From the sequence record NC_054902.1: DNA of 64,000 bases, one strand, 5' to 3'. Below the pieces are notes generated by a model that had not been told where the DNA came from, ran no database searches, and worked only from the letters and a program-made list of their open reading frames with translations. The stretch is from Enterobacteria phage Aplg8. Within the stretch, counting starts at the first letter, position 1. Every line of letters starts with the position of its first letter. A program made the translations under genes and the position numbers. Positions 2,252-59,621 of the stretch are shown piece after piece.

Positions 2252-3711
2252 CAGATATTGTACTGAATGACTTACCATTCGTTGACGGCCCTCCTGCGGA
2301 GGGCCAGAGCCGCATTTCCTGGATTAAAAACGGCGAAGAAATATTAGGAGCTGACACACAGTATGGAAGCGAAGGTTCAATGAATAGACCTACAGTTTCT
2401 GTACTAAGAAATGTTGAAGTTCTTGATAAAAACATTGGAATACTTAAAACATCTTTAGAAACCGCAAATAGTGATATTAAAACCATCCAGGGCATCTTAG
2501 ATGTATCTGGTGATATTGAAGCTTTAGCGCAAATAAGTATCAATAAAAAGGATATTTCTGACCTCAAAACGCTAACCAGTGAACATACAGAAATATTAAA
2601 TGGAACTAATAGTACTGTTGACAACATTCTTGCTGATATTGGTCCATTTAACTCCGAGGCCAACTCTGTATACAGAACAATCAGAAATGATTTACTGTGG
2701 ATAAAGCGTGAACTTGGACAATACACTGGTCAAGATATTAATGGTCTTCCTGTTGTAGGAAATCCTAGTAGTGGAATGAAGCATCGCATTATTAATAATA
2801 CTGATGTCATTACTTCACAGGGAATACGTTTAAGTGAATTAGAAACAAAATTTATTGAATCTGATGTAGGTTCTTTGACCATTGAAGTTGGTAATCTTCG
2901 CGAAGAGCTTGGACCGAAACCACCGTCTTTTTCACAGACTGTTTATAGTCGTTTAAATGAAATTGACACTAAACAGACAACAGTTGAGTCTGATATTAGT
3001 GCTATTAAGACCTCAATAGGATATCCAGGAAATAATTCGATTATTACGAGTGTTAATACAAACACTGATAATATTGCATCTATTAATTTAGAGCTAAATC
3101 AAAGTGGAGGTATTAAACAGCGTTTAACCGTTATTGAAACTTCTATTGGTTCAGATGATATTCCTTCGAGTATTAAAGGCCAAATCAAAGATAATACAAC
3201 TTCAATCGAATCTTTAAATGGAATCGTCGGTGAAAACACTTCATCTGGTTTAAGAGCGAATGTTTCGTGGTTAAACCAAATTGTTGGAACTGATTCTAGC
3301 GGTGGACAACCTTCTCCTCCTGGGTCTCTTTTAAACCGAGTTTCTACAATTGAAACTTCTGTTTCAGGCTTGAATAACGATGTTCAAAACCTACAAGTAG
3401 AGATTGGTAATAACAGCACAGGAATTAAAGGACAAGTTGTAGCGTTAAATACTTTAGTAAATGGAACTAATCCAAACGGTTCAACTGTTGAAGAACGCGG
3501 ATTAACCAATTCAATAAAAGCTAACGAAACCAACATTGCATCAGTTACACAAGAAGTGAATACCGCTAAAGGTAGTATATCTTCTCTGCAAGGTGATGTT
3601 CAAGCTCTCCAAGAAGCAGGTTATATTCCTGAAGCTCCAAAAGATGGCCAAGCTTACGTTCGTAAAGACGGCGAATGGGTATTACTTTCTACCTTTTTAT
3701 CACCAGCATAA
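2248..3711 (+). CDS. wac: fibritin (whisker antigen control), coiled-coil with C-terminal foldon
   Basis: 487-aa ORF; heptad-rich coiled-coil segments; C-terminus [27 protein letters not shown] is the foldon trimerisation motif. Confidence 0.95.
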
Positions 3712-3743: not shown

Positions 3744-5445
<1,702 letters not shown>

Positions 5446-5486: not shown

Positions 5487-8627
<3,141 letters not shown>

Positions 8628-8655: not shown

Positions 8656-10635
8656 ATGACTTTATTATCTCCGGGCATTGAGCTCAAAGAAACTACGGTT
8701 CAAAGCACCGTGGTTAATAACTCTACTGGTACAGCAGCTTTGGCCGGTAAATTCCAGTGGGGTCCTGCTTTTCAAATTAAACAGGTTACAAATGAAGTAG
8801 ATTTAGTTAATACTTTTGGTCAACCTACAGCTGAAACTGCTGACTATTTTATGTCTGCAATGAATTTCTTACAATACGGAAATGATTTGCGAGTTGTGCG
8901 TGCTGTCGATAGAGATACCGCTAAAAACTCATCTCCGATTGCCGGTAATATTGAATACACTATTTCTACCCCAGGTAGTAACTACGCGGTTGGAGATAAA
9001 ATCACTGTTAAGTATGTTTCAGAAGATGTTGAAACAGAAGGTAAAATTACCGAAGTAGATGCTGATGGAAAAATTAAGAAAATTAATATTCCTACCGCAA
9101 AAATTATCGCTAAAGCGAAAGAAGTAGGCGAATATCCAGCATTAGGTTCTAACTGGACTGCGGAAATTTCTTCGTCTTCCTCTGGTTTAGCTGCAGTAAT
9201 AACTCTTGGAAAAATTATTACTGATTCTGGTATTTTATTAGCTGAAATTGAAAATGCCGAAGCTGCTATGACAGCTGTTGACTTTCAAGCAAATCTCGAA
9301 AAATATGGAATTCCAGGAGTAGTAGCTCTTTATCCAGGCGAGTTGGGCGATAAAATCGAAATTGAAATCGTATCTAAAGCAGACTACGCAAAAGGTGCTT
9401 CTGCATTACTCCCAATTTATCCAGGTGGCGGAACACGCGCATCTACTGCCAAAGCAGTGTTTGGATATGGACCACAAACTGATTCACAATACGCTATTAT
9501 AGTTCGTCGCAATGATGCTATTGTTCAAAGCGTTGTTCTTTCAACGAAGCGTGGTGAAAAAGATATTTACGATAGTAACATCTATATTGATGACTTTTTC
9601 GCAAAAGGTGGTTCAGAATATATTTTCGCAACTGCACAAAACTGGCCAGAAGGCTTCTCTGGAATTTTAACTCTGTCTGGTGGTTTATCATCAAATGCTG
9701 AAGTAACAGCAGGAGATTTGATGGAAGCTTGGGACTTCTTTGCTGACCGTGAATCTGTTGACGTTCAGTTGTTTATTGCGGGTTCTTGTGCCGGTGAATC
9801 TTTAGAAACAGCATCTACTGTCCAAAAACACGTCGTTTCAATTGGGGATGCTCGCCAAGATTGCTTAGTATTGTGCTCACCACCGCGTGAAACTGTAGTT
9901 GGAATTCCTGTAACTCGTGCAGTAGATAATTTAGTTAACTGGAGAACTGCAGCAGGTTCATACACTGATAATAACTTTAATATCAGTTCAACCTACGCAG
10001 CAATTGATGGTAACTACAAGTATCAGTACGACAAATATAATGATGTGAATCGTTGGGTTCCATTAGCAGCTGATATTGCTGGTTTATGCGCAAGAACTGA
10101 TAACGTATCTCAGACTTGGATGTCTCCAGCTGGTTATAATCGTGGCCAGATTCTTAACGTTATTAAACTGGCTATTGAAACTCGCCAGGCTCAGCGCGAC
10201 CGTTTATACCAAGAAGCTATCAACCCGGTAACTGGTACAGGTGGTGATGGTTACGTATTGTATGGTGATAAAACAGCTACTTCTGTTCCTTCTCCATTTG
10301 ATCGTATTAACGTTCGTCGTCTGTTTAATATGTTGAAAACGAACATCGGACGTAGTTCAAAATATCGTTTGTTCGAATTAAACAATGCGTTTACTCGTTC
10401 ATCATTCCGCACAGAAACTGCCCAGTACTTACAGGGAATTAAAGCTCTCGGTGGAATTTATGAATATCGTGTAGTTTGCGATACAACAAATAACACTCCG
10501 TCAGTAATTGATAGAAATGAGTTTGTTGCAACATTCTACATCCAACCGGCTCGTAGTATAAATTATATCCAACTTAATTTCGTCGCAACTGCTACCGGTG
10601 CAGATTTTGATGAGTTAACTGGTCTTGCAGGTTAA
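8656..10635 (+). CDS. 18: tail sheath protein gp18
   Basis: 659-aa ORF; synteny; late promoter upstream. Confidence 0.95.
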   Translation: MTLLSPGIELKETTVQSTVVNNSTGTAALAGKFQWGPAFQIKQVTNEVDLVNTFGQPTAETADYFMSAMNFLQYGNDLRVVRAVDRDTAKNSSPIAGNIEYTISTPGSNYAVGDKITVKYVSEDVETEGKITEVDADGKIKKINIPTAKIIAKAKEVGEYPALGSNWTAEISSSSSGLAAVITLGKIITDSGILLAEIENAEAAMTAVDFQANLEKYGIPGVVALYPGELGDKIEIEIVSKADYAKGASALLPIYPGGGTRASTAKAVFGYGPQTDSQYAIIVRRNDAIVQSVVLSTKRGEKDIYDSNIYIDDFFAKGGSEYIFATAQNWPEGFSGILTLSGGLSSNAEVTAGDLMEAWDFFADRESVDVQLFIAGSCAGESLETASTVQKHVVSIGDARQDCLVLCSPPRETVVGIPVTRAVDNLVNWRTAAGSYTDNNFNISSTYAAIDGNYKYQYDKYNDVNRWVPLAADIAGLCARTDNVSQTWMSPAGYNRGQILNVIKLAIETRQAQRDRLYQEAINPVTGTGGDGYVLYGDKTATSVPSPFDRINVRRLFNMLKTNIGRSSKYRLFELNNAFTRSSFRTETAQYLQGIKALGGIYEYRVVCDTTNNTPSVIDRNEFVATFYIQPARSINYIQLNFVATATGADFDELTGLAG

Positions 10636-10643
10636 TTGATTAT

Positions 10644-10657
10644 GGGGCTTCGGCCCC
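10644..10657 (+). terminator. tetraloop hairpin GGGGC-TTCG-GCCCC after gene 18
   Basis: 5-bp GC stem with UUCG loop, 9 nt after the gene 18 stop; the same RNA hairpin recurs at 20236 and 41271 on the other strand. Confidence 0.6.
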
Positions 10658-10722
10658 TATTCTCGAGGAAACAAGTGATTATTTCTAAGTTTGTTACAAT
10701 AAAACCAAGAAATCATTCAAAA

Positions 10723-11280
10723 ATGTGGTCGACAATTCTGGGATATAAAGTATCATATCATGATACAGTATCTGTTCCAATAGAATTAATGCCAAAGAAT
10801 AGTAATAAAATAGTTGACGCTAAATGTGATTTGTGTGGTACTAAATTTAGTAGAAGCATTCAACTTTTAAATAGAACACCCACACATGCATGTAGAAAAT
10901 GTAGCATTAAACAAGTTGCTATTAAAAATTCGGAAGTTCAATCTGGAATAAGCAGACCATGGCAAAGAGGTGATAAACATCCTCGATGGACTGGCAAAAG
11001 AAAAGAGTTTGCATTATATGCTAGTAGAGTTCATTCTATAACTAAGTCAGCTAAAATAAGAAAAATCTGGTCAAAATGGCCGAATGCTGATAAAATAGGA
11101 ATGTGCGGCGTAGAAGGTGCTTATCAACTCGATCATAAAGTATCTATCAAATATGGATTTGATAATTTAATTCCGCCGGAAATTATAGCAAGTGTAAAAA
11201 ATTTAGAAATAATCACTTGGGAATCTAACCGAGAAAAGTCAAAAAGAAATAGCGTAGATCTTTGGGATTTACTAGAATGA
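10723..11280 (+). CDS. free-standing HNH-family endonuclease with N-terminal CxxC...CxxC zinc ribbon (putative homing endonuclease)
   Basis: ORF 10636..11280 begins with TTG inside the gene 18 terminator hairpin; first plausible ATG is at 10723 (MWSTILGY...). Motifs CDLCG...CRKCS and LDHKVSIKYGFDNL...NLEIITWESNREKSKRN (His-Me finger, H-N-N variant). Confidence 0.7.
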   Translation: MWSTILGYKVSYHDTVSVPIELMPKNSNKIVDAKCDLCGTKFSRSIQLLNRTPTHACRKCSIKQVAIKNSEVQSGISRPWQRGDKHPRWTGKRKEFALYASRVHSITKSAKIRKIWSKWPNADKIGMCGVEGAYQLDHKVSIKYGFDNLIPPEIIASVKNLEIITWESNREKSKRNSVDLWDLLE

Positions 11281-11287
11281 TTCTAAA

Positions 11288-11305
11288 GGCCTGTTTCGGC
11301 AGGCC
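11288..11305 (+). terminator. hairpin GGCCTG-tttcgg-CAGGCC after the HNH ORF
   Basis: 6-bp GC-rich inverted repeat 8 nt after the HNH ORF stop. Confidence 0.45.
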
Positions 11306-11306
11306 A

Positions 11307-11314
11307 TATAAATA
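11307..11314 (+). promoter_or_regulatory. T4-type late promoter TATAAATA (distal, upstream of gene 19)
   Basis: exact octamer. Confidence 0.5.
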
Positions 11315-11365
11315 CACTATATCCTTAATTCTTTAATTCTATATGCCCTAGGTTAAACATAGGGA

Positions 11366-11373
11366 TATAAATA
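11366..11373 (+). promoter_or_regulatory. T4-type late promoter TATAAATA (proximal, upstream of gene 19)
   Basis: exact octamer 15 nt upstream of the gene 19 ATG. Confidence 0.65.
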
Positions 11374-11387
11374 CTACAGAGGCTAAT

Positions 11388-11879
11388 ATGTTTGTAGATG
11401 ATGTAACACGAGCGTTTGAATCTGGTGATTTTGCTCGACCTAACTTATTCCAAGTAGAAATTTCTTATCTTGGACAAAATTTTACGTTTCAATGTAAAGC
11501 CACTGCTTTACCAGCTGGTATTGTAGAAAAAATTCCAGTCGGATTTATGAACCGTAAAATTAACGTAGCAGGCGATCGTACATTCGATGACTGGACTGTT
11601 ACAGTAATGAACGATGAGGCACATGATGCTCGCCAGAAGTTTGTTGATTGGCAAAGCATTGCTGCTGGGCAAGGGAACGAAATTACTGGTGGAAAACCAG
11701 CAGAGTATAAAAAGAGCGCTGTTGTTCGCCAATATGCTCGTGATGCTAAAACTGTAACAAAAGAAGTCGAAATTAAAGGCCTGTGGCCTACTAACGTGGG
11801 TGAACTTCAATTAGATTGGGATTCAAACAATGAAATCCAAACCTTTGAAGTAACTCTTGCTCTCGATTATTGGGAATAA
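11388..11879 (+). CDS. 19: tail tube protein gp19
   Basis: 163-aa ORF; synteny. Confidence 0.93.
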   Translation: MFVDDVTRAFESGDFARPNLFQVEISYLGQNFTFQCKATALPAGIVEKIPVGFMNRKINVAGDRTFDDWTVTVMNDEAHDARQKFVDWQSIAAGQGNEITGGKPAEYKKSAVVRQYARDAKTVTKEVEIKGLWPTNVGELQLDWDSNNEIQTFEVTLALDYWE

Positions 11880-17269: not shown

Positions 17270-17282
17270 TCTTTGACGATTT

Positions 17283-17303
17283 AAGGGACCTTCGGGTCCC
17301 TTT
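17283..17303 (+). terminator. hairpin AAGGGACC-TTCG-GGTCCCTT after gene 23
   Basis: 8-bp stem with UUCG loop followed by TTT; 14 nt after the gene 23 stop. Confidence 0.7.
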
Positions 17304-17317
17304 AGTTGTTTTTATGG

Positions 17318-17325
17318 TATAAATA
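17318..17325 (+). promoter_or_regulatory. T4-type late promoter TATAAATA upstream of gene 24
   Basis: exact octamer 28 nt upstream of the gene 24 ATG. Confidence 0.7.
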
Positions 17326-17352
17326 AATCATATAAACCAAAAGGAAAGCGCA

Positions 17353-33160: not shown

Positions 33161-35218
33161 CTACATTTTGAACTTTTTAGACATTCCGTTGATGTTAACC
33201 AAAGAAGCTAAGATTTGAGAAACTTCGTTTTCCTCTTCTTTTGATTCTTCTACAAGGAATTGATTAAATCCAGCCATTAGACGAACTTCACCAGTTTCCA
33301 TTAGATGGTCGCCATCATATACTGATTCCTCTAATTGTTCAGAAGGAGGAACGATTGTACCTTCGATTAGATACTTGTTATAAGCAGTTTCTTTCATAAA
33401 GTAAGTACTTACTTTATTAATCTTCAGTAAAATTCCACGTGGTAGAATAACTTCAGCTTCTGATGGAAATCCTGATAAATGACCCGGAACGATAACTTTG
33501 ATTCGCTCAGCTCCTTTAATTACCATACCCACGCTAGTTTCAGCATCTTCATTAGCATATGTAGAATGACTACCCATATGCATCAAATCTTCTGCATCAA
33601 CGGAACCTTCTCCTTCACCAGAAAATACTGCTCCGGAATCATCTAAGGCCATATAATTTTTACCATACTCACCAAAGATATTTGGTTTAAGTGATGTCGA
33701 TACGAAGTTCTTGAAATAGAACATTTTATTTTCAATGTTATGACGCAAAGTTTTAAAAGTAACTTCTTGTCCACGGTAAAGTGTAGTTCCTGGAGGAAGA
33801 ACTGAACCTTTAGCGAATGCAGAATCAAGCGTCTCAATATGTTTAATAGCTCGTTCCATATATTCTTCACGGGTAGAATCTGGTTTACCCAAAAGGAACG
33901 AGTTCATTTCAACATATGAATCTGCGCAATAATCTTCAATTACGTCAGATTCAGCCTGAGTTAATCCTTTTGGAGTTACTTCGGTGCTTGCATATTCATA
34001 CGCCTGAGCAGCGGATTCATCAATTAATTTATAAATGCCATTCATGACAAATTGAATAATAGCTGTCTTTTCATCTGGCGTAGCTTTAGAACCTTTAACT
34101 AAATCATTGACAATTTTCTTAATAACATCAAAGCTATTAGAAATATTAATGTCAGCAAGATCGCTTAAAATTTTATCAGTTTTATAATCAAAAAATTCTT
34201 TATTCTTTAAATATTCTTGAGAACTTTGATATGTTATATCGCTCTGCAACTTGATAGATGGATCACGTAAACGTGCATGGGCTAATGCAATATGATTTCG
34301 GAAGCTTTCTAGTTCATAATCGTTAGATTTAAAACGAGAAGCACTTCTCATACCACCGATAGCTCCTTTGCTGAAGTTTGAACCAATCTGAATAACGCCA
34401 GAGTTCATTGGTCCTTCTGCTTTATATACCGGAACTTTAGATTCAAACTCTTGATATTTCTTAGCAGCGAAGCTATCACCCTGAAGTGAAGCATCAACAG
34501 TAGAATATTGAGCTTGTGCTGCTAATCGACGACTAATTTTAGTTTTCTGAATAACAGCTTGATCCGTACGCTTATCATTTTCTAAAGCAATAGAAGCAGC
34601 AACTGCGACAGCTTTAGGAACAGCATTACCTGTTTTAACGTCTACATAAACATCACCAACCTTTGATTCAACTTTTGTGAATAACTCAGTTGAAATAGGA
34701 GGTACACCTGGAATGTCTTCTAAATTGGCATTTTTACGGTAAACCATAATATATGCATATTTCTTATCATAGTCCCAGATTTCCTTTAAAAGAACATATC
34801 GACCTGCTCCTTTAGTACGTACTAAACGGTCAGCAATAACTTGCATTTGACGAGCTGCGCCATTTGTTTTACTCTTTAGTACGCGGAATAAGCATGCATC
34901 AATTTTATACTGTTTCATTGTTTGAAGAGCAGTATCAAAAACAGCATTAATGACGCCAATTGGATTTCCACCTAAGTTTTTAAGTTTAACTAATGATAAT
35001 TTCTCGTTGACACCTATCATTACGATATGCATCATTTTGTCGCCTGGCTTAACGTTTTTATTCGTATCACCGCCAGAGGTGTATGTACAAAATCTAAATC
35101 CAGGAAGCACGCTTTCTTCACCGGCTTGAATAGCAAAAATTTGAGGTATTTTATGCTTAGGATTTAAGTTAACAACCGGCGCCGAAGCGCCGTCAAATAA
35201 TTCTGTAATAAGTTCCAT
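33161..35218 (-). CDS. Alt-like ADP-ribosyltransferase paralog (T4 alt.-2/alt.-1 position)
   Basis: 685-aa ORF; N-terminus MELITELFDGASAPVVNLNPKHKIPQIF parallels Alt; C-terminal R-S-E motifs (LYRGQ, FVSTSL, SEAEVILPRG). Confidence 0.8.
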   Translation of the reverse strand: MELITELFDGASAPVVNLNPKHKIPQIFAIQAGEESVLPGFRFCTYTSGGDTNKNVKPGDKMMHIVMIGVNEKLSLVKLKNLGGNPIGVINAVFDTALQTMKQYKIDACLFRVLKSKTNGAARQMQVIADRLVRTKGAGRYVLLKEIWDYDKKYAYIMVYRKNANLEDIPGVPPISTELFTKVESKVGDVYVDVKTGNAVPKAVAVAASIALENDKRTDQAVIQKTKISRRLAAQAQYSTVDASLQGDSFAAKKYQEFESKVPVYKAEGPMNSGVIQIGSNFSKGAIGGMRSASRFKSNDYELESFRNHIALAHARLRDPSIKLQSDITYQSSQEYLKNKEFFDYKTDKILSDLADINISNSFDVIKKIVNDLVKGSKATPDEKTAIIQFVMNGIYKLIDESAAQAYEYASTEVTPKGLTQAESDVIEDYCADSYVEMNSFLLGKPDSTREEYMERAIKHIETLDSAFAKGSVLPPGTTLYRGQEVTFKTLRHNIENKMFYFKNFVSTSLKPNIFGEYGKNYMALDDSGAVFSGEGEGSVDAEDLMHMGSHSTYANEDAETSVGMVIKGAERIKVIVPGHLSGFPSEAEVILPRGILLKINKVSTYFMKETAYNKYLIEGTIVPPSEQLEESVYDGDHLMETGEVRLMAGFNQFLVEESKEEENEVSQILASLVNINGMSKKFKM

Positions 35219-35221
35219 GAT

Positions 35222-37315
35222 TTATCCTTGAACGAACTTGTAAGGCATGTTTGTAATATCTATGCAAGACGCAATAATTCCAAGAGATGATTCTACTTTC
35301 TGTTTAACATTTGATGAAACAAATGATGCAAAGTCAACTCTGTCTTCTATTTCAATATCACCTGTCATTGCAACTACTTCGCCAGTTTCCATTAAACGGT
35401 CACCGTCATAAATTACCGATTCGGTGAGTTCTTCGGTGGTCATAACTTCAGCTTGAATGAGTTTTGTATTATTAGACGTGGTTCCGTCATTATTAGAAGC
35501 ATCAGTTATTTTATTAACTTTGACCATCAATCCGCGCGGTAGAATAACTTCGGCTTCTGTTGCTATTCCGAGACTTCCTGGATATACAACATTAACTTTA
35601 TGAGCTCCATCAATTGCCCATCCTATTTGAACTTTAACGTATTCAGGATTTTCTTTATACGCTCTTATTTCGTTTGGATTAATAGTTATTCCTTCTTCAT
35701 TTTTATCAACTGTCAATTCATTACGAGCTTCTGGTTCTAAAAGACCAATACCAGCATGTGTAATTCCAAAACGTCCAAAAATGATAGGAGTTAAAGAAGT
35801 AGATACAAAATTTCTGAAATAGAACACTTTATTTTTAACTAGTGCTTCGTATATAGGAGCAGTCATACTTTGAGCACGATAAACTGTGATGCCTTCCGGT
35901 ATGCGGTCACCATTTTCAAAAGCTGAATCTAAGTTATTTATAGCAGATTCAATTTCTTTTTCACTCATTACATCATATCGTTCTGGATTGTAACGACCTA
36001 AAAGAAGATTATTGATGTCAGTATATCCTGAACCGCAATATTCTCTAATGCCACGCTTTTGTGATGGAGTATATTTAGAACCATCGCGGGCAATAGTAAT
36101 ATCAATCATTGGACCAGCACCAATTCCAGAAAAACTGTAAATCATTCGTTTGAGGAATTTAGTTTTTGCTGCGTTCCAGGAATTTTTAGTTATTTCTTCC
36201 CAGACTTCATCTGGTTGTCCTTTACGATTTTTATTATGATTAGCAAGCCATTTATCTTTATAATCTTCAAAGAATTGATTTACAGCTGCTGCGTATTTCT
36301 CTAAACATTTTATTGAAGTAGTTGGTTCATTTTTAATTGCATTAAAAATTACTTCTTTAATTTTTTCTGAAACTTCACCGACTTGACTCATTGGAAAGAA
36401 TTTATAATCATAGTGAAGTTCATCTGCCGTTCCTTTAGCAATAATTTTTGCTGCCTTTGTTTTAGAAGCTAATGAATTAATTCCAATTTTCATTTCTTCT
36501 GCTTCGGGAATTAAAGGTGCAGTAGCTGGTTTATTAAAATTAGCTGCTGTAGATTCATACTTCTGGAATAATTCACTTTCAAATCTAGAAGATTCCAATG
36601 ACTGACTTTGTGCAATTGCTCTACGGGAAATTTTAACTTTAACGATTACGGCTTGGTCAGAACGTTTATCATTTTCTTGTGCAATAGATGCAGCAATTGC
36701 CTCATTTTTGGTTACTTGAGCTCCAGTATCTTTATTGATATAAACATCACCGACTTTCGATTCAACTTTAGTAAAGAGCTCGGTACTAATTTCCGGAACT
36801 CCTGGAATGTCTTCTAGTGATACATTTTTACGATGTATAAGAATATATGCATACTTTTTATCGTAATCCCAGAGTTCCTTAAGAAGGACGTATCTGCCAC
36901 CTGAACGACTGCGGATGAGTCTATCAGCAATAAGTTGAATTTGTCGAGCTTGACCGGCGGTTTTAGACTTAAGAATACGGAGCATACAGGCATCAATTTT
37001 ATACTGACGCATCGTTTGCATCGCAACAGTAAAAACTGAATTGATGTAATTAATTGGGCTTGGACCGAGACCTTTTAATTTAGCAATTGAACCTTTAGCA
37101 GTTAATGTAAAAGGAACAATATGCATCATTTTATCGCCCATCTTTAAATCGCGATTAGTATCACCTCCAGATGTATAGGTACACAAACGAAAGCCTGGTT
37201 GTTCAATTGCGTCATCAACATGAACTGAAAAAATTTGCGGTATTTTCTTCTTTGGATTTAAGTTTGTAATCGGAAGAGTAGTATCTTCGTCAAATAATTC
37301 TGTAATGAGTTCCAT
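35222..37315 (-). CDS. alt: Alt ADP-ribosyltransferase (packaged, modifies host RNA polymerase)
   Basis: 697 aa from the second Met (MELITELFDEDTTLP...); R-S-E motifs (VYRAQ, FVSTSL, TEAEVILPRG); late promoter upstream. Confidence 0.88.
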   Translation of the reverse strand: MELITELFDEDTTLPITNLNPKKKIPQIFSVHVDDAIEQPGFRLCTYTSGGDTNRDLKMGDKMMHIVPFTLTAKGSIAKLKGLGPSPINYINSVFTVAMQTMRQYKIDACMLRILKSKTAGQARQIQLIADRLIRSRSGGRYVLLKELWDYDKKYAYILIHRKNVSLEDIPGVPEISTELFTKVESKVGDVYINKDTGAQVTKNEAIAASIAQENDKRSDQAVIVKVKISRRAIAQSQSLESSRFESELFQKYESTAANFNKPATAPLIPEAEEMKIGINSLASKTKAAKIIAKGTADELHYDYKFFPMSQVGEVSEKIKEVIFNAIKNEPTTSIKCLEKYAAAVNQFFEDYKDKWLANHNKNRKGQPDEVWEEITKNSWNAAKTKFLKRMIYSFSGIGAGPMIDITIARDGSKYTPSQKRGIREYCGSGYTDINNLLLGRYNPERYDVMSEKEIESAINNLDSAFENGDRIPEGITVYRAQSMTAPIYEALVKNKVFYFRNFVSTSLTPIIFGRFGITHAGIGLLEPEARNELTVDKNEEGITINPNEIRAYKENPEYVKVQIGWAIDGAHKVNVVYPGSLGIATEAEVILPRGLMVKVNKITDASNNDGTTSNNTKLIQAEVMTTEELTESVIYDGDRLMETGEVVAMTGDIEIEDRVDFASFVSSNVKQKVESSLGIIASCIDITNMPYKFVQG

Positions 37316-45616: not shown

Positions 45617-47009
<1,393 letters not shown>

Positions 47010-47013
<4 letters not shown>

Positions 47014-50059: not shown

Positions 50060-51238
50060 TTAAAAGTATTTTTTAAAACTCATCATAACTTTATCATCAA
50101 CATCATTATCAATCTGTGCAACAAGATAAGATGACAGCTCTACTTCTTGCGGTGCAGATTGAACATTATCAGAATTAAGATATTCACGAATCCAAGGATA
50201 TGGATGTTTAACCGGAGCATCGGTAATTGGGCATGGAAGACCACACTGTTTCATACGAGATACAGTTAAGTAATCAATAAAGCTCCACATGCTATTTGTA
50301 TTTAATCCAGGAACATCGCCATCTTTAAATAAATGAACTGCCCAATCTTTTTCTTGGCGGTTAACTTCCATGAAAATATCAACTGCTTCTTGTTCACACT
50401 CTTGAGCAATTTTAACCCATTCATCGCCATCAGTACCAGATTGAAGTTGACGAATAATATATTGGGTGCCTTTAAGGTGAAGCTGTTCATCGCGTGCAAT
50501 GAACTTCATAATCTTGGCATTACCTTCCATGATTTCCATGTTCTTATGGAAGTTAAAGGTACATGCGAAAGATACATAAAAACGAATAGCTTCCAATGCA
50601 TTGATTACATGCAAACAGAGGTAAAGAGATTTCATTAGCTCACGCTTCCAATATGTCTCATGCTCAATAGCATCTTCAATAACGTCTTCGTCTGCATTAA
50701 TTTCTTTTTGGTATTCGATATCAGCTTTAGCGTTTTCCCAATAACGAGTTTTAATCAGAACATCATCATAATAACGTCCAATGGATTCAGCACGTTTCAT
50801 AATAGCTTCATCTAATACAATTTCATCAAATACCTTCGATGGATCAGTATAAAGATTTCGCATGATATGAGTATATGAACGACTGTGAATAGTTTCACTA
50901 AAAGTCCATGTAGCAACCCATGTATCAAGGCTTGGGTCTGAAATTAATGACATAAGTACAGCAGATGGCGCGCGACCCTGAATGCTATCTAAAAGTGATT
51001 GATACTTCAAGTTGTTAGTAAAAATATTTTGCTGATACTGAGGAAGCTTATTAAACTGTGCAGCATCCATCATCAAGTTTACTTCTTCGGGACGCCAAAA
51101 AAATGATAAAGATTTCTCAATAAGTTCTTCAAATACTCTATGTCGTTGAATATCATATCGAGCTAAACCCAATCCAGAACCAAAAAACATCGGCTCAGTC
51201 AAAATATTAACAGGGGATGTATTAAAAACTGTGCTCAT
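50060..51238 (-). CDS. nrdB: ribonucleotide reductase small subunit (uninterrupted)
   Basis: 392-aa continuous ORF with di-iron/tyrosyl radical R2 features; no intron. Confidence 0.93.
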   Translation of the reverse strand: MSTVFNTSPVNILTEPMFFGSGLGLARYDIQRHRVFEELIEKSLSFFWRPEEVNLMMDAAQFNKLPQYQQNIFTNNLKYQSLLDSIQGRAPSAVLMSLISDPSLDTWVATWTFSETIHSRSYTHIMRNLYTDPSKVFDEIVLDEAIMKRAESIGRYYDDVLIKTRYWENAKADIEYQKEINADEDVIEDAIEHETYWKRELMKSLYLCLHVINALEAIRFYVSFACTFNFHKNMEIMEGNAKIMKFIARDEQLHLKGTQYIIRQLQSGTDGDEWVKIAQECEQEAVDIFMEVNRQEKDWAVHLFKDGDVPGLNTNSMWSFIDYLTVSRMKQCGLPCPITDAPVKHPYPWIREYLNSDNVQSAPQEVELSSYLVAQIDNDVDDKVMMSFKKYF

Positions 51239-51968
51239 AAATTTTCCTCTTTAAAATTCTGCCGCGTTTCCAACCTGGCGGTATAATATCATCTTTACCT
51301 ATAAGCGTGCATTCACTTCCATTATTAATCCATTTCTTACCGCGGATTCCTTTATAATCTCTTGGTTGTATTTTATCAAACTTTGCATCAAGTTGATATG
51401 ACCATCTAAATCCATAGGCATATTGAAATTTACCCTCAGCACAATATTTGATATTTGACCCGTTTCCATTAACTGACCTGGACGCTGCCGCAATAGAGTG
51501 AAAGGTTTCTATGAAATCCCCATCTAATGAGAATTTATGTATTTCGATAGATGGGCATGCATACCTATTCACGTTTGATACATGTTGTTTAGTTTCGTTT
51601 TTATGATGCTTGCCTAACATTCCTCTAGGATGAGGATTATTTTTCCAATATTTCTTAAAGAAATCAGAATTAGCTTTAGCAAATAATTTTCTGTGCAAGC
51701 TATACAATCTGTTATTAATTCTATTACCAGCTTTATCTGTTGCCATTAACGTTAACGCAGAGGCAAGCCCAAAATGGCCTTCATTTATCTTACATAGTAA
51801 TAGATGCGCTATAAAATGTTCTCTAGCTGTTAATTCAACTAAATTTTCTTTATCATCAGAACCTCCCATGCATTTAGGGACTATATGATGTGTCTCTTTA
51901 TATTCAGATAAAGGTTCCCGAGCCTGAGCTCGGGAAATTAGGTCATTATAGATTTTTTGATAATTCAT
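51222..51968 (-). CDS. mobE: HNH homing endonuclease (MobE-like) between nrdA and nrdB
   Basis: 248-aa ORF; HNH motif HHIVPKCMGGSDDKENLVELTAREH; C-terminal basic DNA-binding region; ATGA overlap with nrdA. Confidence 0.75.
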   Translation of the reverse strand: MNYQKIYNDLISRAQAREPLSEYKETHHIVPKCMGGSDDKENLVELTAREHFIAHLLLCKINEGHFGLASALTLMATDKAGNRINNRLYSLHRKLFAKANSDFFKKYWKNNPHPRGMLGKHHKNETKQHVSNVNRYACPSIEIHKFSLDGDFIETFHSIAAASRSVNGNGSNIKYCAEGKFQYAYGFRWSYQLDAKFDKIQPRDYKGIRGKKWINNGSECTLIGKDDIIPPGWKRGRILKRKIYEHSF

Positions 51969-54786: not shown

Positions 54787-55647
54787 TTACACCGCCATCT
54801 TTCCTTTAATAGGAGGGTGTGATTCATAGTTGTTAAGAATAAAATTATGCGGCTTTGCGAATTGACTCAACCAAAATACCTGCGATTCTGTGTCCCATTC
54901 ATCAAATTCATCTGGAAATTTTAATTGCAATTCGCATAAATCCATAGGTTCACGACGCAAAATTTCTTTACATTGCTCTACGTGATTCATATAGATATGA
55001 GTATTACCACCAGAAAATATCAAATCTCCGGGAATAAGATTACACATCTTAGCTACAATATGCGTCAAGGCAGCGTACGAGGCAATGTTGAATGGCAAGC
55101 CCAAGAAAACATCTACACTTCTTTGGTACCACTGCAAATCCAAATAGCCATTACGCACATTAAACTGATAGAACATATGACAAGGCGGTAATGCCATATA
55201 TTTAAGTTCAGCTGGATTCCACGCAGAAACAATTTGACGCCTATCATTCGGCAGTTTTTTAATACGATCAATAACTTCTACAATTTGGTCTACACCGCCA
55301 AAATCACGCCATTGTTTTCCATAAATTGGACCAAGTTCACCGCTATGGTATCCTAAATCTTTTGCCTGATTTTCGTAATTTTCATCCCAAACTGTTTTGC
55401 CTTGGATTAATGAATCATGCTGAATTAATCGTAAATCATTGACATTTGTGCTTCCTGACAAAAACCATATTAACTCAGCAATGCATGCATTCCAGGCGAG
55501 CTTTTTAGTTGTTACTGCAGGAAAACCTTTGGTTAAATCCCAACGCAATTTAGTACCGAACAAAGCAATTGTTCCTGTGCCTGTTCGGTCATCGGTTTCA
55601 TAACCATTTTCAAAAATGTCTTTAATTAAATCTTGGTATTGTTTCAT
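54787..55647 (-). CDS. td: thymidylate synthase (uninterrupted)
   Basis: 286-aa continuous ORF; active-site region PPCH..FYQ; no intron. Confidence 0.96.
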
Positions 55648-55684: not shown

Positions 55685-56050
55685 CTAATAATTAAACGGT
55701 TTAGCATCAAATTTTCTCTCAATTTCAGGCGTGAAATATAATTCTTTACCGCGTTTGGAAAAACGACCAATAATATGATAATTATTCTCATCAAACGTGA
55801 TATTGCCGATATCCATAGCTTTCAACCAAATATCGATATTTCTGTCAAGCTTTATATCAAAATTCCAATACGGAGAACTATTACCAAAAATACTGCAAGC
55901 GGATTCAGTGAAACAACTGCTATAAATTTTGTCTTTAGGAACTATTAATTGATAGACGCCTTTAATAAACTGAGGACCTTGCCATTTTGGTTGTTTCGCG
56001 TCTTTTTCTAATAGAATAGGGTAATAATTAAAATTCATATTTTCCGCCAC
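55685..56050 (-). CDS. hypothetical protein inserted between frd and td
   Basis: 121-aa ORF filling a 411-bp gap between the frd stop and the td start. Confidence 0.6.
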   Translation of the reverse strand: MAENMNFNYYPILLEKDAKQPKWQGPQFIKGVYQLIVPKDKIYSSCFTESACSIFGNSSPYWNFDIKLDRNIDIWLKAMDIGNITFDENNYHIIGRFSKRGKELYFTPEIERKFDAKPFNY

Positions 56051-56058
56051 GTATTATT

Positions 56059-56881
<823 letters not shown>

Positions 56882-56885
<4 letters not shown>

Positions 56886-57241
56886 ATTACCTCCCACTGA
56901 AAGGGGCCAGAAGCAAATCCGCTATCTTTAATCATTTTAACTAAAGTTACCATTCCTCTGTTAACTGCTTGCGCGATTTCATCAAAAACTTCATCACTAT
57001 CACCATAAAGATCGCTAAAAAGTTCTAACACATTCTTCTGAACTTTTAATTTACAGCCAACAAATTCGCCTACAGTAAATTCGTTTCCGCCAACTCCAGC
57101 GTAAAACGTAATTACACCAGTTAATGGTCTTTCACTAGAACATAGGTCGTGTGATAAATTAATATAAGCCGTCCCGGGTACAGTTTTAAGTTGGCAACGA
57201 ATACTTACTCGAGCAATTCCAGCTACATGAATGTCAGACAT
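56882..57241 (-). CDS. hypothetical protein (T4 frd.2 position)
   Basis: 119-aa ORF. Confidence 0.6.
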
Positions 57242-59522: not shown

Positions 59523-59600
59523 TTTTATTTCCTTTTTAATTTAATTAACAGTTGGTGCTATGACGATGTATGACCTCATAGCTGGTCAGTGAGATAATTA
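59523..59600 (-). promoter_or_regulatory. gene 32 autoregulatory translational operator (pseudoknot + A/U-rich unstructured leader)
   Basis: minus-strand leader ...GACCAGCUAUGAGGUCAUACAUCGUCAUAGCACCAACUGUUAAUUAAAUUAAAAAGGAAAUAAAAAUG: nested complementarity GCUAUGA/UCAUAGC and UGACC/GGUCA, then UUAAAUUAAA repeats before the AUG. Confidence 0.65.
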
Positions 59601-59621
59601 TAATTTATTTATAATAAGCAA

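Follow-up and report, generated by a model that had tools for sequence, protein, structure and literature searches.

Between the tail sheath gene (gene 18) and the tail tube gene (gene 19) of Enterobacteria phage Aplg8 (NC_054902.1) lies a small gene, 19.1, whose product combines an N-terminal zinc site with a C-terminal domain resembling those of HNH nucleases. "The window" here denotes the whole 64,000-nucleotide (nt) stretch of this phage that was analysed. Over region 10300-11700 the window shares 99.7% identity with Escherichia phage vB_EcoM_Kelasse and 99.1% with T6, and by its sequence the phage is a T6/Kelasse-like Tequatrovirus. A first-pass annotation of this DNA had described an open reading frame (ORF) for a free-standing zinc-ribbon and HNH-type endonuclease in a block of roughly 750 base pairs (bp) between genes 18 and 19, and had stated that T4 has no gene at this position. 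Both points are borne out, as the gene 18-19 spacer measures 752 bp in the window and 116 bp in T4, which lacks the gene, and the view of a gene inserted into this spacer is further supported by its absence from about three quarters of Tequatrovirus records.

The first-pass annotation had also suggested a comparison of the intergenic region across T4-like genomes, and this comparison yields precise boundaries (Table 1). In a whole-region BLAST alignment the 643-bp insert displaces only 7 bp of T4 DNA, aligned as ACGGTGC, just past the gene 18 stop codon, and the roughly 200 bp 3' of position 11280 are identical between the window and T4. The empty site of T4 holds no remnant of 19.1, and the 7 bp found there bear no relation to the cassette. 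The stem-loop that now follows 19.1 (fold energy -14.1 kcal/mol, z-score -3.05) and both TATAAATA late promoters ahead of gene 19 are T4 spacer sequence and therefore lie outside the insert, of which they had initially been considered parts. Conversely, the hairpin directly 3' of the gene 18 stop codon, at first taken for the gene 18 terminator, is missing from T4 and belongs to the insert; it folds but has no U-tract, and a terminator pattern scan neither called it nor found any U-tract terminator. Thus the proposal of an intergenic insertion stands by virtue of the T4 comparison, while the anatomical argument originally given for it falls away, since it rests on native T4 sequence. There is no TATAAATA within the insert, the nearest upstream copy being at 8620 ahead of gene 18, and an Rfam search of the window gave no match. 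As the insertion spares both gene 19 promoters, its cost to the phage would be low.

Table 1. Features at the gene 18-19 locus of the window.
Feature	Position	Strand	Remark
Gene 17	6792-8624		
Gene 18 (tail sheath)	8656-10635		
Stretch of synonymous variation, gene 18 3' end	10558-10584	+	I-N-Y codons ATA AAT TAT 10558-10566; AAT 10576-10578; GTC 10582-10584
Inserted cassette relative to T4	10637-11279	+	643 bp in place of 7 T4 bp; from T4 alignments; same boundaries in RB3-type allele
Insert-borne leader stem-loop	10644-10657	+	GGGGC-UUCG-GCCCC; absent from T4, kept in RB3-type allele
Shine-Dalgarno GAGGA and GTG start	10665-10677	+	GAGGA 10665-10669, GTG 10675-10677; from sequence, homologue N-termini and PHROG profile
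Gene 19.1	10675-11280	+	201-amino-acid product; stop TGA 11278-11280
Variable N-terminal domain, about residues 1-120	10675-11034	+	beta strands and treble-clef zinc site, then linker
Zinc-site cysteines C51, C54	10825-10836		first CxxC
Zinc-site cysteines C73, C76	10891-10902		second CxxC
HNH (beta-beta-alpha-metal) core, residues 150-188	11122-11238	+	
D153-H154	11131-11136	+	
N176	11200-11202	+	
N185	11227-11229	+	
Native stem-loop, originally 3' of gene 18, now 3' of 19.1	11288-11305	+	100% identical to T4
Native gene 19 late promoters TATAAATA	11307-11314, 11366-11373	+	100% identical to T4 spacer
Gene 19 (tail tube)	11388-11879		gene 20 next

The reading frame of 19.1 can be opened at several codons. 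Mechanical ORF calling begins at TTG 10636, giving a 214-amino-acid reading, and ATG 10723 had also been considered in the first-pass annotation, for products of 185 to 214 amino acids. The GTG listed in Table 1 is the best start, as a Shine-Dalgarno sequence sits 5 nt ahead of it, the profile of PHROG 5104 begins at its residue with MII(S/T)K, and 26 of 29 aligned homologues start at the same position with MI(I/L/T). The records of T6 and vB_SsoM_113 also annotate a 201-residue product. A word-indexed search returned 46 full-length homologues with E values down to 1e-129. The protein is also a full-length match to PHROG 5104, a family of unknown function (E 9.8e-82, residues 14-213 of the 214-residue reading), which its tested relatives match as well with E values of 1e-15 to 1e-91. 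The ratio of nonsynonymous to synonymous substitution rates (dN/dS) is 0.04 and 0.09 between T6-type copies and 0.10 for the HNH third between the T6 and RB3 types, and the match covers at least 80% of the 19.1 protein in 231 of the 242 phage records with a tblastn match. These dN/dS values point to a working protein under purifying selection with no decay, and 19.1 is a real, intact gene under selection. The annotation of vB_EcoM_WL-3 (MT968995.1) breaks the T6-type gene up into several short ORFs, among them a 59-residue piece (P0047) that is 100% identical to the 19.1 C-terminus and is named "putative head morphogenesis protein"; this split represents either a frameshifted, decaying copy or a sequencing error.

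The C-terminal third of the protein carries the nuclease signature. The His-Me finger motif LDHKVSIKYGFDNL...NLEIITWESNREK reported in the first-pass annotation is present, as is the CxxC...CxxC zinc site reported with it. An alignment of 29 sequences leaves C54, Y115, G145, Y150, Q151, D153, H154, S157, G161, N176, L177, W182, N185, R186 and K188 invariant, with C51 and C73 nearly so, and D153, H154, N176 and N185 are still invariant among 20 C-domain sequences that include relatives from phages 133, AS-zj, Acj61 and phiM12. The residues expected of a His-Me finger are all in place, namely a histidine following D/H in the catalytic position, a structural asparagine and a putative metal-binding Asn/His within a helix. 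The DH-x21-N-x8-N spacing is the pattern of HNH domains such as that of Cas9 (D839-H840, N854, N863), where these residues are catalytic. An alignment-based AlphaFold (AF2) model of 19.1 is confident, with a mean predicted local distance difference test score of 88.5, and places a strand at 150-154, two short helices, a strand at 177-181 and a helix at 182-190, which is the beta-beta-alpha-metal fold in predicted form. The two best structural matches, 4h9d (Gme HNH) and 5h0o (phage GVE2 HNH), are small HNH nicking enzymes, and the lower ones comprise Cas9 HNH domains, an Rhs nuclease toxin, the T5 SciA nickase, McrA, VcaM4I, PtuB and PacI. Additionally, Foldseek against predicted viral structures returns proteins annotated as HNH endonuclease, endonuclease-like and homing endonuclease, and several short relatives are named "McrA" by IMG. 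Two findings had been named beforehand as fatal to the endonuclease proposal, the same gene in T4 and a lack of nuclease-fold support, and neither was made. The case that the C-terminal 80 residues form an HNH domain, of a subfamily overlooked by curated profiles, is good but not overwhelming, and the product is very probably an HNH nuclease with predicted activity.

The N-terminal domain is of a different character. Both the alignment and the AF2 model place its four cysteines in a knuckle and at the start of a helix, which is the arrangement of a treble clef, and the model is of low confidence over the linker at about residues 81-110. There is a weak match to a Pfam treble-clef zinc-finger family (DUF4379, E 0.013-0.015) and another weak match to PHROG 12131, which is annotated as "homing endonuclease". 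Relative to the class-B alleles, identity in the N-terminal domain is about 30% while that of the C-terminal part is 65-84%, and we infer that the N-terminal domain is a DNA-recognition module.

Comparison of natural alleles shows how unevenly the gene has diverged. In RB7, RB3, sb1, ADUt and others the 19.1 protein is only 49-50% identical to that of the window, while the C-terminus of the gene 18 protein (gp18) and the gene 19 protein (gp19) are 99% identical. The T6-type and RB3/RB7-type alleles have the same boundaries, leader hairpin, Shine-Dalgarno sequence, GTG and first codons. At the DNA level they share about 90% identity in the leader and in the HNH third, and no alignment is possible over the N-terminal two thirds; at the protein level the C-terminal 81 residues are about 84% identical and the first 120 about 30%, with an extra insertion in the RB3/RB7 type. 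This pattern indicates in-place recombination between alleles that swaps the putative recognition module.

The distribution of 19.1 is that of a presence/absence polymorphism with precise boundaries at one intergenic site, and it is patchy even among nearly identical genomes. Within Tequatrovirus (about 500 records) about 382 records cover the empty-junction query and about 116 have the occupied left junction, 68 of the latter with the T6-type gene. Beyond this genus the family occurs at other insertion points and at another locus. For example, in Dhakavirus a 135-bp native spacer piece (97.8% identical) lies 3' of the ORF in PSD9 but 5' of it in ecom005, where the 19.1-family ORF abuts the gene 19 ATG, and VR7 retains empty-type spacer positions 21-210 3' of its 19.1-family ORF. 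In Acinetobacter phage 133 a 273-residue relative sits inside rnlA, the split pieces of which match residues 3-81 and 89-374 of T4 RnlA. Incongruent alleles, differing insertion points and this separate locus together constitute evidence of independent acquisition. The family is also modular, as its C-terminal module is found joined to DUF7487 N-termini or to C-terminal W-Y-N-D-G repeats. Relatives of 350-390 residues were considered as possible gp19 fusions, which was rejected as their extra C-terminal parts are W-Y-N-D-G-type repeats and not tail tube. A profile search of 1.84 billion representative proteins returned 6385 clusters (50% identity) at E <= 1e-3 and 1677 at E <= 1e-10, and the family to which 19.1 belongs is thus large and unnamed.

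Several individual genomes add detail to this distribution. In L021 (IMG/VR UViG 2706795394) a GGGGA-TGAAAG-TCCCC stem-loop at about 1605-1640 directly follows the gene 18 stop codon, and the 19.1-family ORF lies at the far end of the spacer beside gene 19; the stem-loop hints at an earlier proximal occupant or a separately mobile hairpin. In the Dhakavirus vB_EcoM_005 both spacers beside the tail-tube gene are occupied, one by a 19.1-family gene and the other, between genes 19 and 20, by a second, unrelated annotated HNH endonuclease gene (3747-4328 of its locus, L011). Three records with loci 98-99% identical to the one in this Tequatrovirus carry doubtful host labels: PV654520.1 (Pseudomonas phage vB_PSGBLB0006), OR584013.1 (Pseudomonas phage PsgM02F) and MG010123.1 (Staphylococcus phage SAJK-IND), the last flagged UNVERIFIED_ORG.

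The end of gene 18 flanks the insert. Its last 100 nt contain 17 differences from T4 against an upstream background of about 4%, and only one of the 11 amino-acid differences between the two gp18 proteins (Q639/T) falls in this stretch. Among 17 Tequatrovirus loci, AAT...GTC at 10576-10584 is present in 7 of 7 occupied and 0 of 10 empty ones. As strict occupancy markers, the synonymous sites 10578 and 10584 were refuted by chimeric-junction searches. A T4-type flank accompanies none of the 68 T6-type inserts; their closest flank is 94.7% identical to it and keeps at least 14 of the 17 differences. By contrast, about two thirds of sampled empty records have a T4-type flank. Additionally, the codons ATA AAT TAT are found at 13 of 19 occupied loci, spanning six lineages, and at only 4 of the 18 empty ones, among which ATY AAC TAC predominates. 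Since these samples are non-independent, and since tight linkage or co-conversion would look alike, ATA AAT TAT is noted as a lead only, and the same holds for the whole variable stretch as a candidate recognition or immunity site or co-conversion tract. Alternatively, the target would span the vacant junction GGTTAAT/ACGGTGC/ATTCTAAAGG, a sequence lost when the cassette is present. It is common for free-standing endonucleases to cleave at a distance from where they are inserted (PMC13096335). A role of the gene 18 haplotype AGTATAAATTATAT as a new late promoter for 19.1 was also considered and rejected: it reads TATAAATT and not TATAAATA, VR7 and PSD9 show GATAAATT instead, and the haplotype also occurs in some empty genomes.

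On balance we regard it as likely that 19.1 is a promoter-less, free-standing cassette for a homing-type endonuclease. It is probably a selfish element of the homing type, from a family that has yet to be described. What we infer about its enzyme activity, its target site, its homing and whether it makes a nick or a double-strand break can be put together as follows. Late transcripts of gene 18, initiated at the promoter at 8620, would carry the gene as a passenger and must read through the leader stem-loop, and translation would begin at the GTG. The variable N-terminal zinc-finger domain would pick the DNA site and the conserved C-terminal HNH domain would cleave it, with H154 acting as general base, the metal bound by D153 and N185, and N176 in a structural role. 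In a mixed infection with a relative devoid of the gene, the protein would then nick or cut the 18/19 region of that relative, either at the empty junction that the cassette disrupts or at the conserved 3' end of gene 18. Given a monomer with a single HNH site, and by analogy with T4 MobE, a nick is most likely, and such a nick could become a break at replication. Recombinational repair from a 19.1-bearing genome would finally copy the cassette, together with nearby gene 18 sequence, into the recipient.

Several observations weigh against this reading. The first is the constancy of position, as 14 of 15 sampled contexts place the 19.1-family gene directly 3' of the tail sheath gene. These contexts are T6, vB_SsoM_113, VR7, RB7, KP185, PSD9, ecom005, Thanatos-2, Ci1, Acj61, AS-zj, SAJK-IND, sb1/ADUt and the very distant Sinorhizobium phage phiM12, in which the gene following the 19.1 relative is not gene 19. 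Constant position over several subfamilies and phiM12 could equally mean that 19.1 is an old resident accessory gene, inherited vertically and repeatedly lost, for example from T4, with a nuclease that serves the phage, for instance by degrading host or competitor DNA. The strong purifying selection and the intactness of nearly all copies would also suit such a gene. However, vertical descent plus loss is hard to reconcile with the incongruence of alleles, which are 49% identical in genomes whose gp18 and gp19 are 99% identical, and with two alleles at two insertion points of one spacer within one genus. The clean T4 site and the relative that has invaded rnlA also argue against residence, and we consider a resident gene improbable. 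In our view a conserved target accounts better for the fidelity to this locus, given the high conservation of the protein sequence encoded at the 3' end of gene 18. Additionally, six empty records are 100% identical to the T6-type flank and three RB3-type records sit on a flank that is 100% T4-type, the RB3/RB7-type allele being found on both T4-type and RB3-type flanks. The flank haplotypes are consequently suggestive but ambiguous as evidence that 19.1 cleaves or homes at the 18/19 junction. Finally, the literature searched holds no cleavage, homing or expression data on 19.1.

Further points on the same side concern the nuclease domain. Foldseek of 19.1 against the PDB gives nothing below E 0.38, and curated HNH profiles are unmatched. 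The window protein has no Pfam HNH family at E <= 1, the best such match among the 29 members is HNH_4 (PF13395) at E 0.078 in one member only, and an NCBIfam search of 19.1 gave nothing useful. A profile search of the PDB yields leucine-rich repeat (LRR) and zinc-finger matches that are spurious, the former because a P-x-I-I-x-x-I-x-N-L motif mimics LRRs, and its only HNH match is Cas8f-HNH at E 0.21. Since 19.1 is an H-N-N variant without the flanking cysteine pairs of many HNH domains, one might regard it as a DNA-binding protein with a degenerate, inactive HNH-like fold, such as a regulator of the late genes 18 and 19. We hold this to be very unlikely, as it is precisely the presumed catalytic residues (D-H, N, N) that stay invariant across thousands of relatives, and 19.1 is dispensable in most relatives. 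The GVE2 HNH enzyme, which with Gme HNH heads the structural matches, acts together with the large terminase. A packaging role for 19.1 like that of the HNH proteins beside the terminase genes of cos phages is also very unlikely despite its place in the 16-17-18-19-20 packaging and morphogenesis block, as gene 18 stands between 19.1 and gene 17, occurrence is sporadic, the N-terminal domain varies between alleles, and T4 and most relatives lack the gene and by annotation package with the nuclease of gp17 itself.

The homing-type reading can be taken one step further. It is conceivable, though we would not expect it, that 19.1 represents a very large, unnamed HNH family loyal to the 3' flank of the tail sheath gene across Straboviridae subfamilies and phiM12, which swaps N-terminal recognition domains at this one locus, and that the ATA-AAT-TAT haplotype is the footprint of an arms race between target and immunity. 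Were this true, the family would provide a natural series of re-targeted nickases built on a common catalytic module, accessible in the classic phages T6, RB3 and T4.

Gene 19.1 has been annotated in T6 for years and was cited by the VR7 annotation of 2010, and the depositors of phage 133 remarked that Acj133p227 has "some similarity to ORF19.1 of T6". Nearly all records call it "hypothetical"; some use "head morphogenesis protein", two Klebsiella phages have it as "type II restriction endonuclease", and the ADUt GenBank record names the RB3-type allele "homing endonuclease". In RB7 (KM606997.1) an intact RB3-type ORF for 205 amino acids at 2501-3118 of the extracted locus (L005) is unannotated, and the same is apparently true of RB5, RB6, RB9 and RB10, in whose records the match to the junction overlaps no listed gene other than that for the tail sheath. 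Petrov et al. count one "other HNH" gene in T6 and none in RB3 or Acj61, both of which carry the 19.1 family (PMC2993671), so 19.1 was not recognised as a family. The locus is not discussed in two T4 reviews of 2010 or in a 2026 T6 SegB paper, literature searches for "gp19.1" and "ORF19.1" lead only to SPP1 and Candida genes, no Pfam family covers the protein and the literature searched contains no experiment on it.

The T-even phages are the reference for intron-less homing, yet a gene of classic T6 is still called hypothetical. If active, 19.1 would add a homing site within an essential block of tail genes and would explain the local mosaicism at the end of gene 18. It would also give a name and a function to PHROG 5104 and thousands of metagenomic relatives, and its two natural alleles, in which recognition domains have been exchanged on a shared catalytic domain, would suit studies of HNH homing specificity. 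There is a bearing on annotation as well, with the RB7 ORF uncalled and others mislabelled.

Elsewhere in the window the set of homing elements is very different from that of T4. The window lacks segD between genes 23 and 24 (17281-17340), the nrdB intron with I-TevIII (50562-50565), the td intron with I-TevI (55095-55100) and segG between genes 32 and 59 (59585-59621). A MobE homologue is present on the minus strand at 51222-51968; it has 248 amino acids with a long C-terminal half containing K-K-W-I-N-N-G, and its ORF overlaps the nrdB start. At this locus the T4 annotation lists a 141-residue MobE and an 83-residue nrdB.1, and the T4 arrangement could be the product of truncation or splitting. 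Extra DNA relative to T4 occurs on the minus strand at 46711-47013, 55685-56050 and 56640-57241, containing small ORFs of unknown function with 100 amino acids (pseT/pseT.1), 121 amino acids (td/frd) and 85 and 119 amino acids (frd/frd.1). The region of alt and alt.-1 to alt.-3 (33180-36509) is rearranged and diverged from T4, with out-of-order BLAST pieces that are 69-79% identical.

Among known systems, Hef of phage U5 belongs to a different nuclease family (EDxHD, PD-(D/E)xK-like). Gme HNH and GVE2 HNH, the closest proteins by structure, are only 10-18% identical to 19.1, are single-domain proteins of about 95 amino acids and are not known as mobile cassettes of the 18/19 spacer. Another comparison is with MobE of T4, a free-standing HNH homing endonuclease. 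Its gene is promoter-less and is co-transcribed with nrdA under the restraint of a stem-loop, and its HNH-dependent nick in T2 nrdB is strand-specific (PMC2790892). It is inherited at high frequency (PMC2790892; PMC2988022), and seven free-standing endonuclease genes of T4 are promoter-less (PMC2988022), as is 19.1. Both MobE and 19.1 are cassettes in the spacer between two conserved genes (nrdA and nrdB for MobE), are co-transcribed with the upstream gene, in the case of 19.1 presumably, have a stem-loop that possibly limits read-through and a single HNH site, and are patchily distributed among T-even phages. The fidelity of MobE to nrdA/nrdB would likewise resemble that of 19.1 to gene 18. 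However, the two lack detectable sequence similarity (BLASTP E 0.36 over 17 residues), and 19.1 matches no Mob PHROG, which places it outside the mob-like HNH genes (mobA to mobE) of T4. The HNH domain is N-terminal in MobE and C-terminal in 19.1, the stem-loop lies inside the MobE ORF but in the leader of 19.1, 19.1 has a zinc treble-clef N-terminal domain that MobE does not have, and activity has been demonstrated for MobE and is predicted for 19.1. A counterpart at another locus is Acj133p227 of phage 133, which shares the C-terminal HNH module (47% identity over 58 amino acids by tblastn; PHROG 5104, E 1e-15), but joins it, in its larger protein within rnlA, to another N-terminal half that matches PHROG 3339, annotated as "homing endonuclease".

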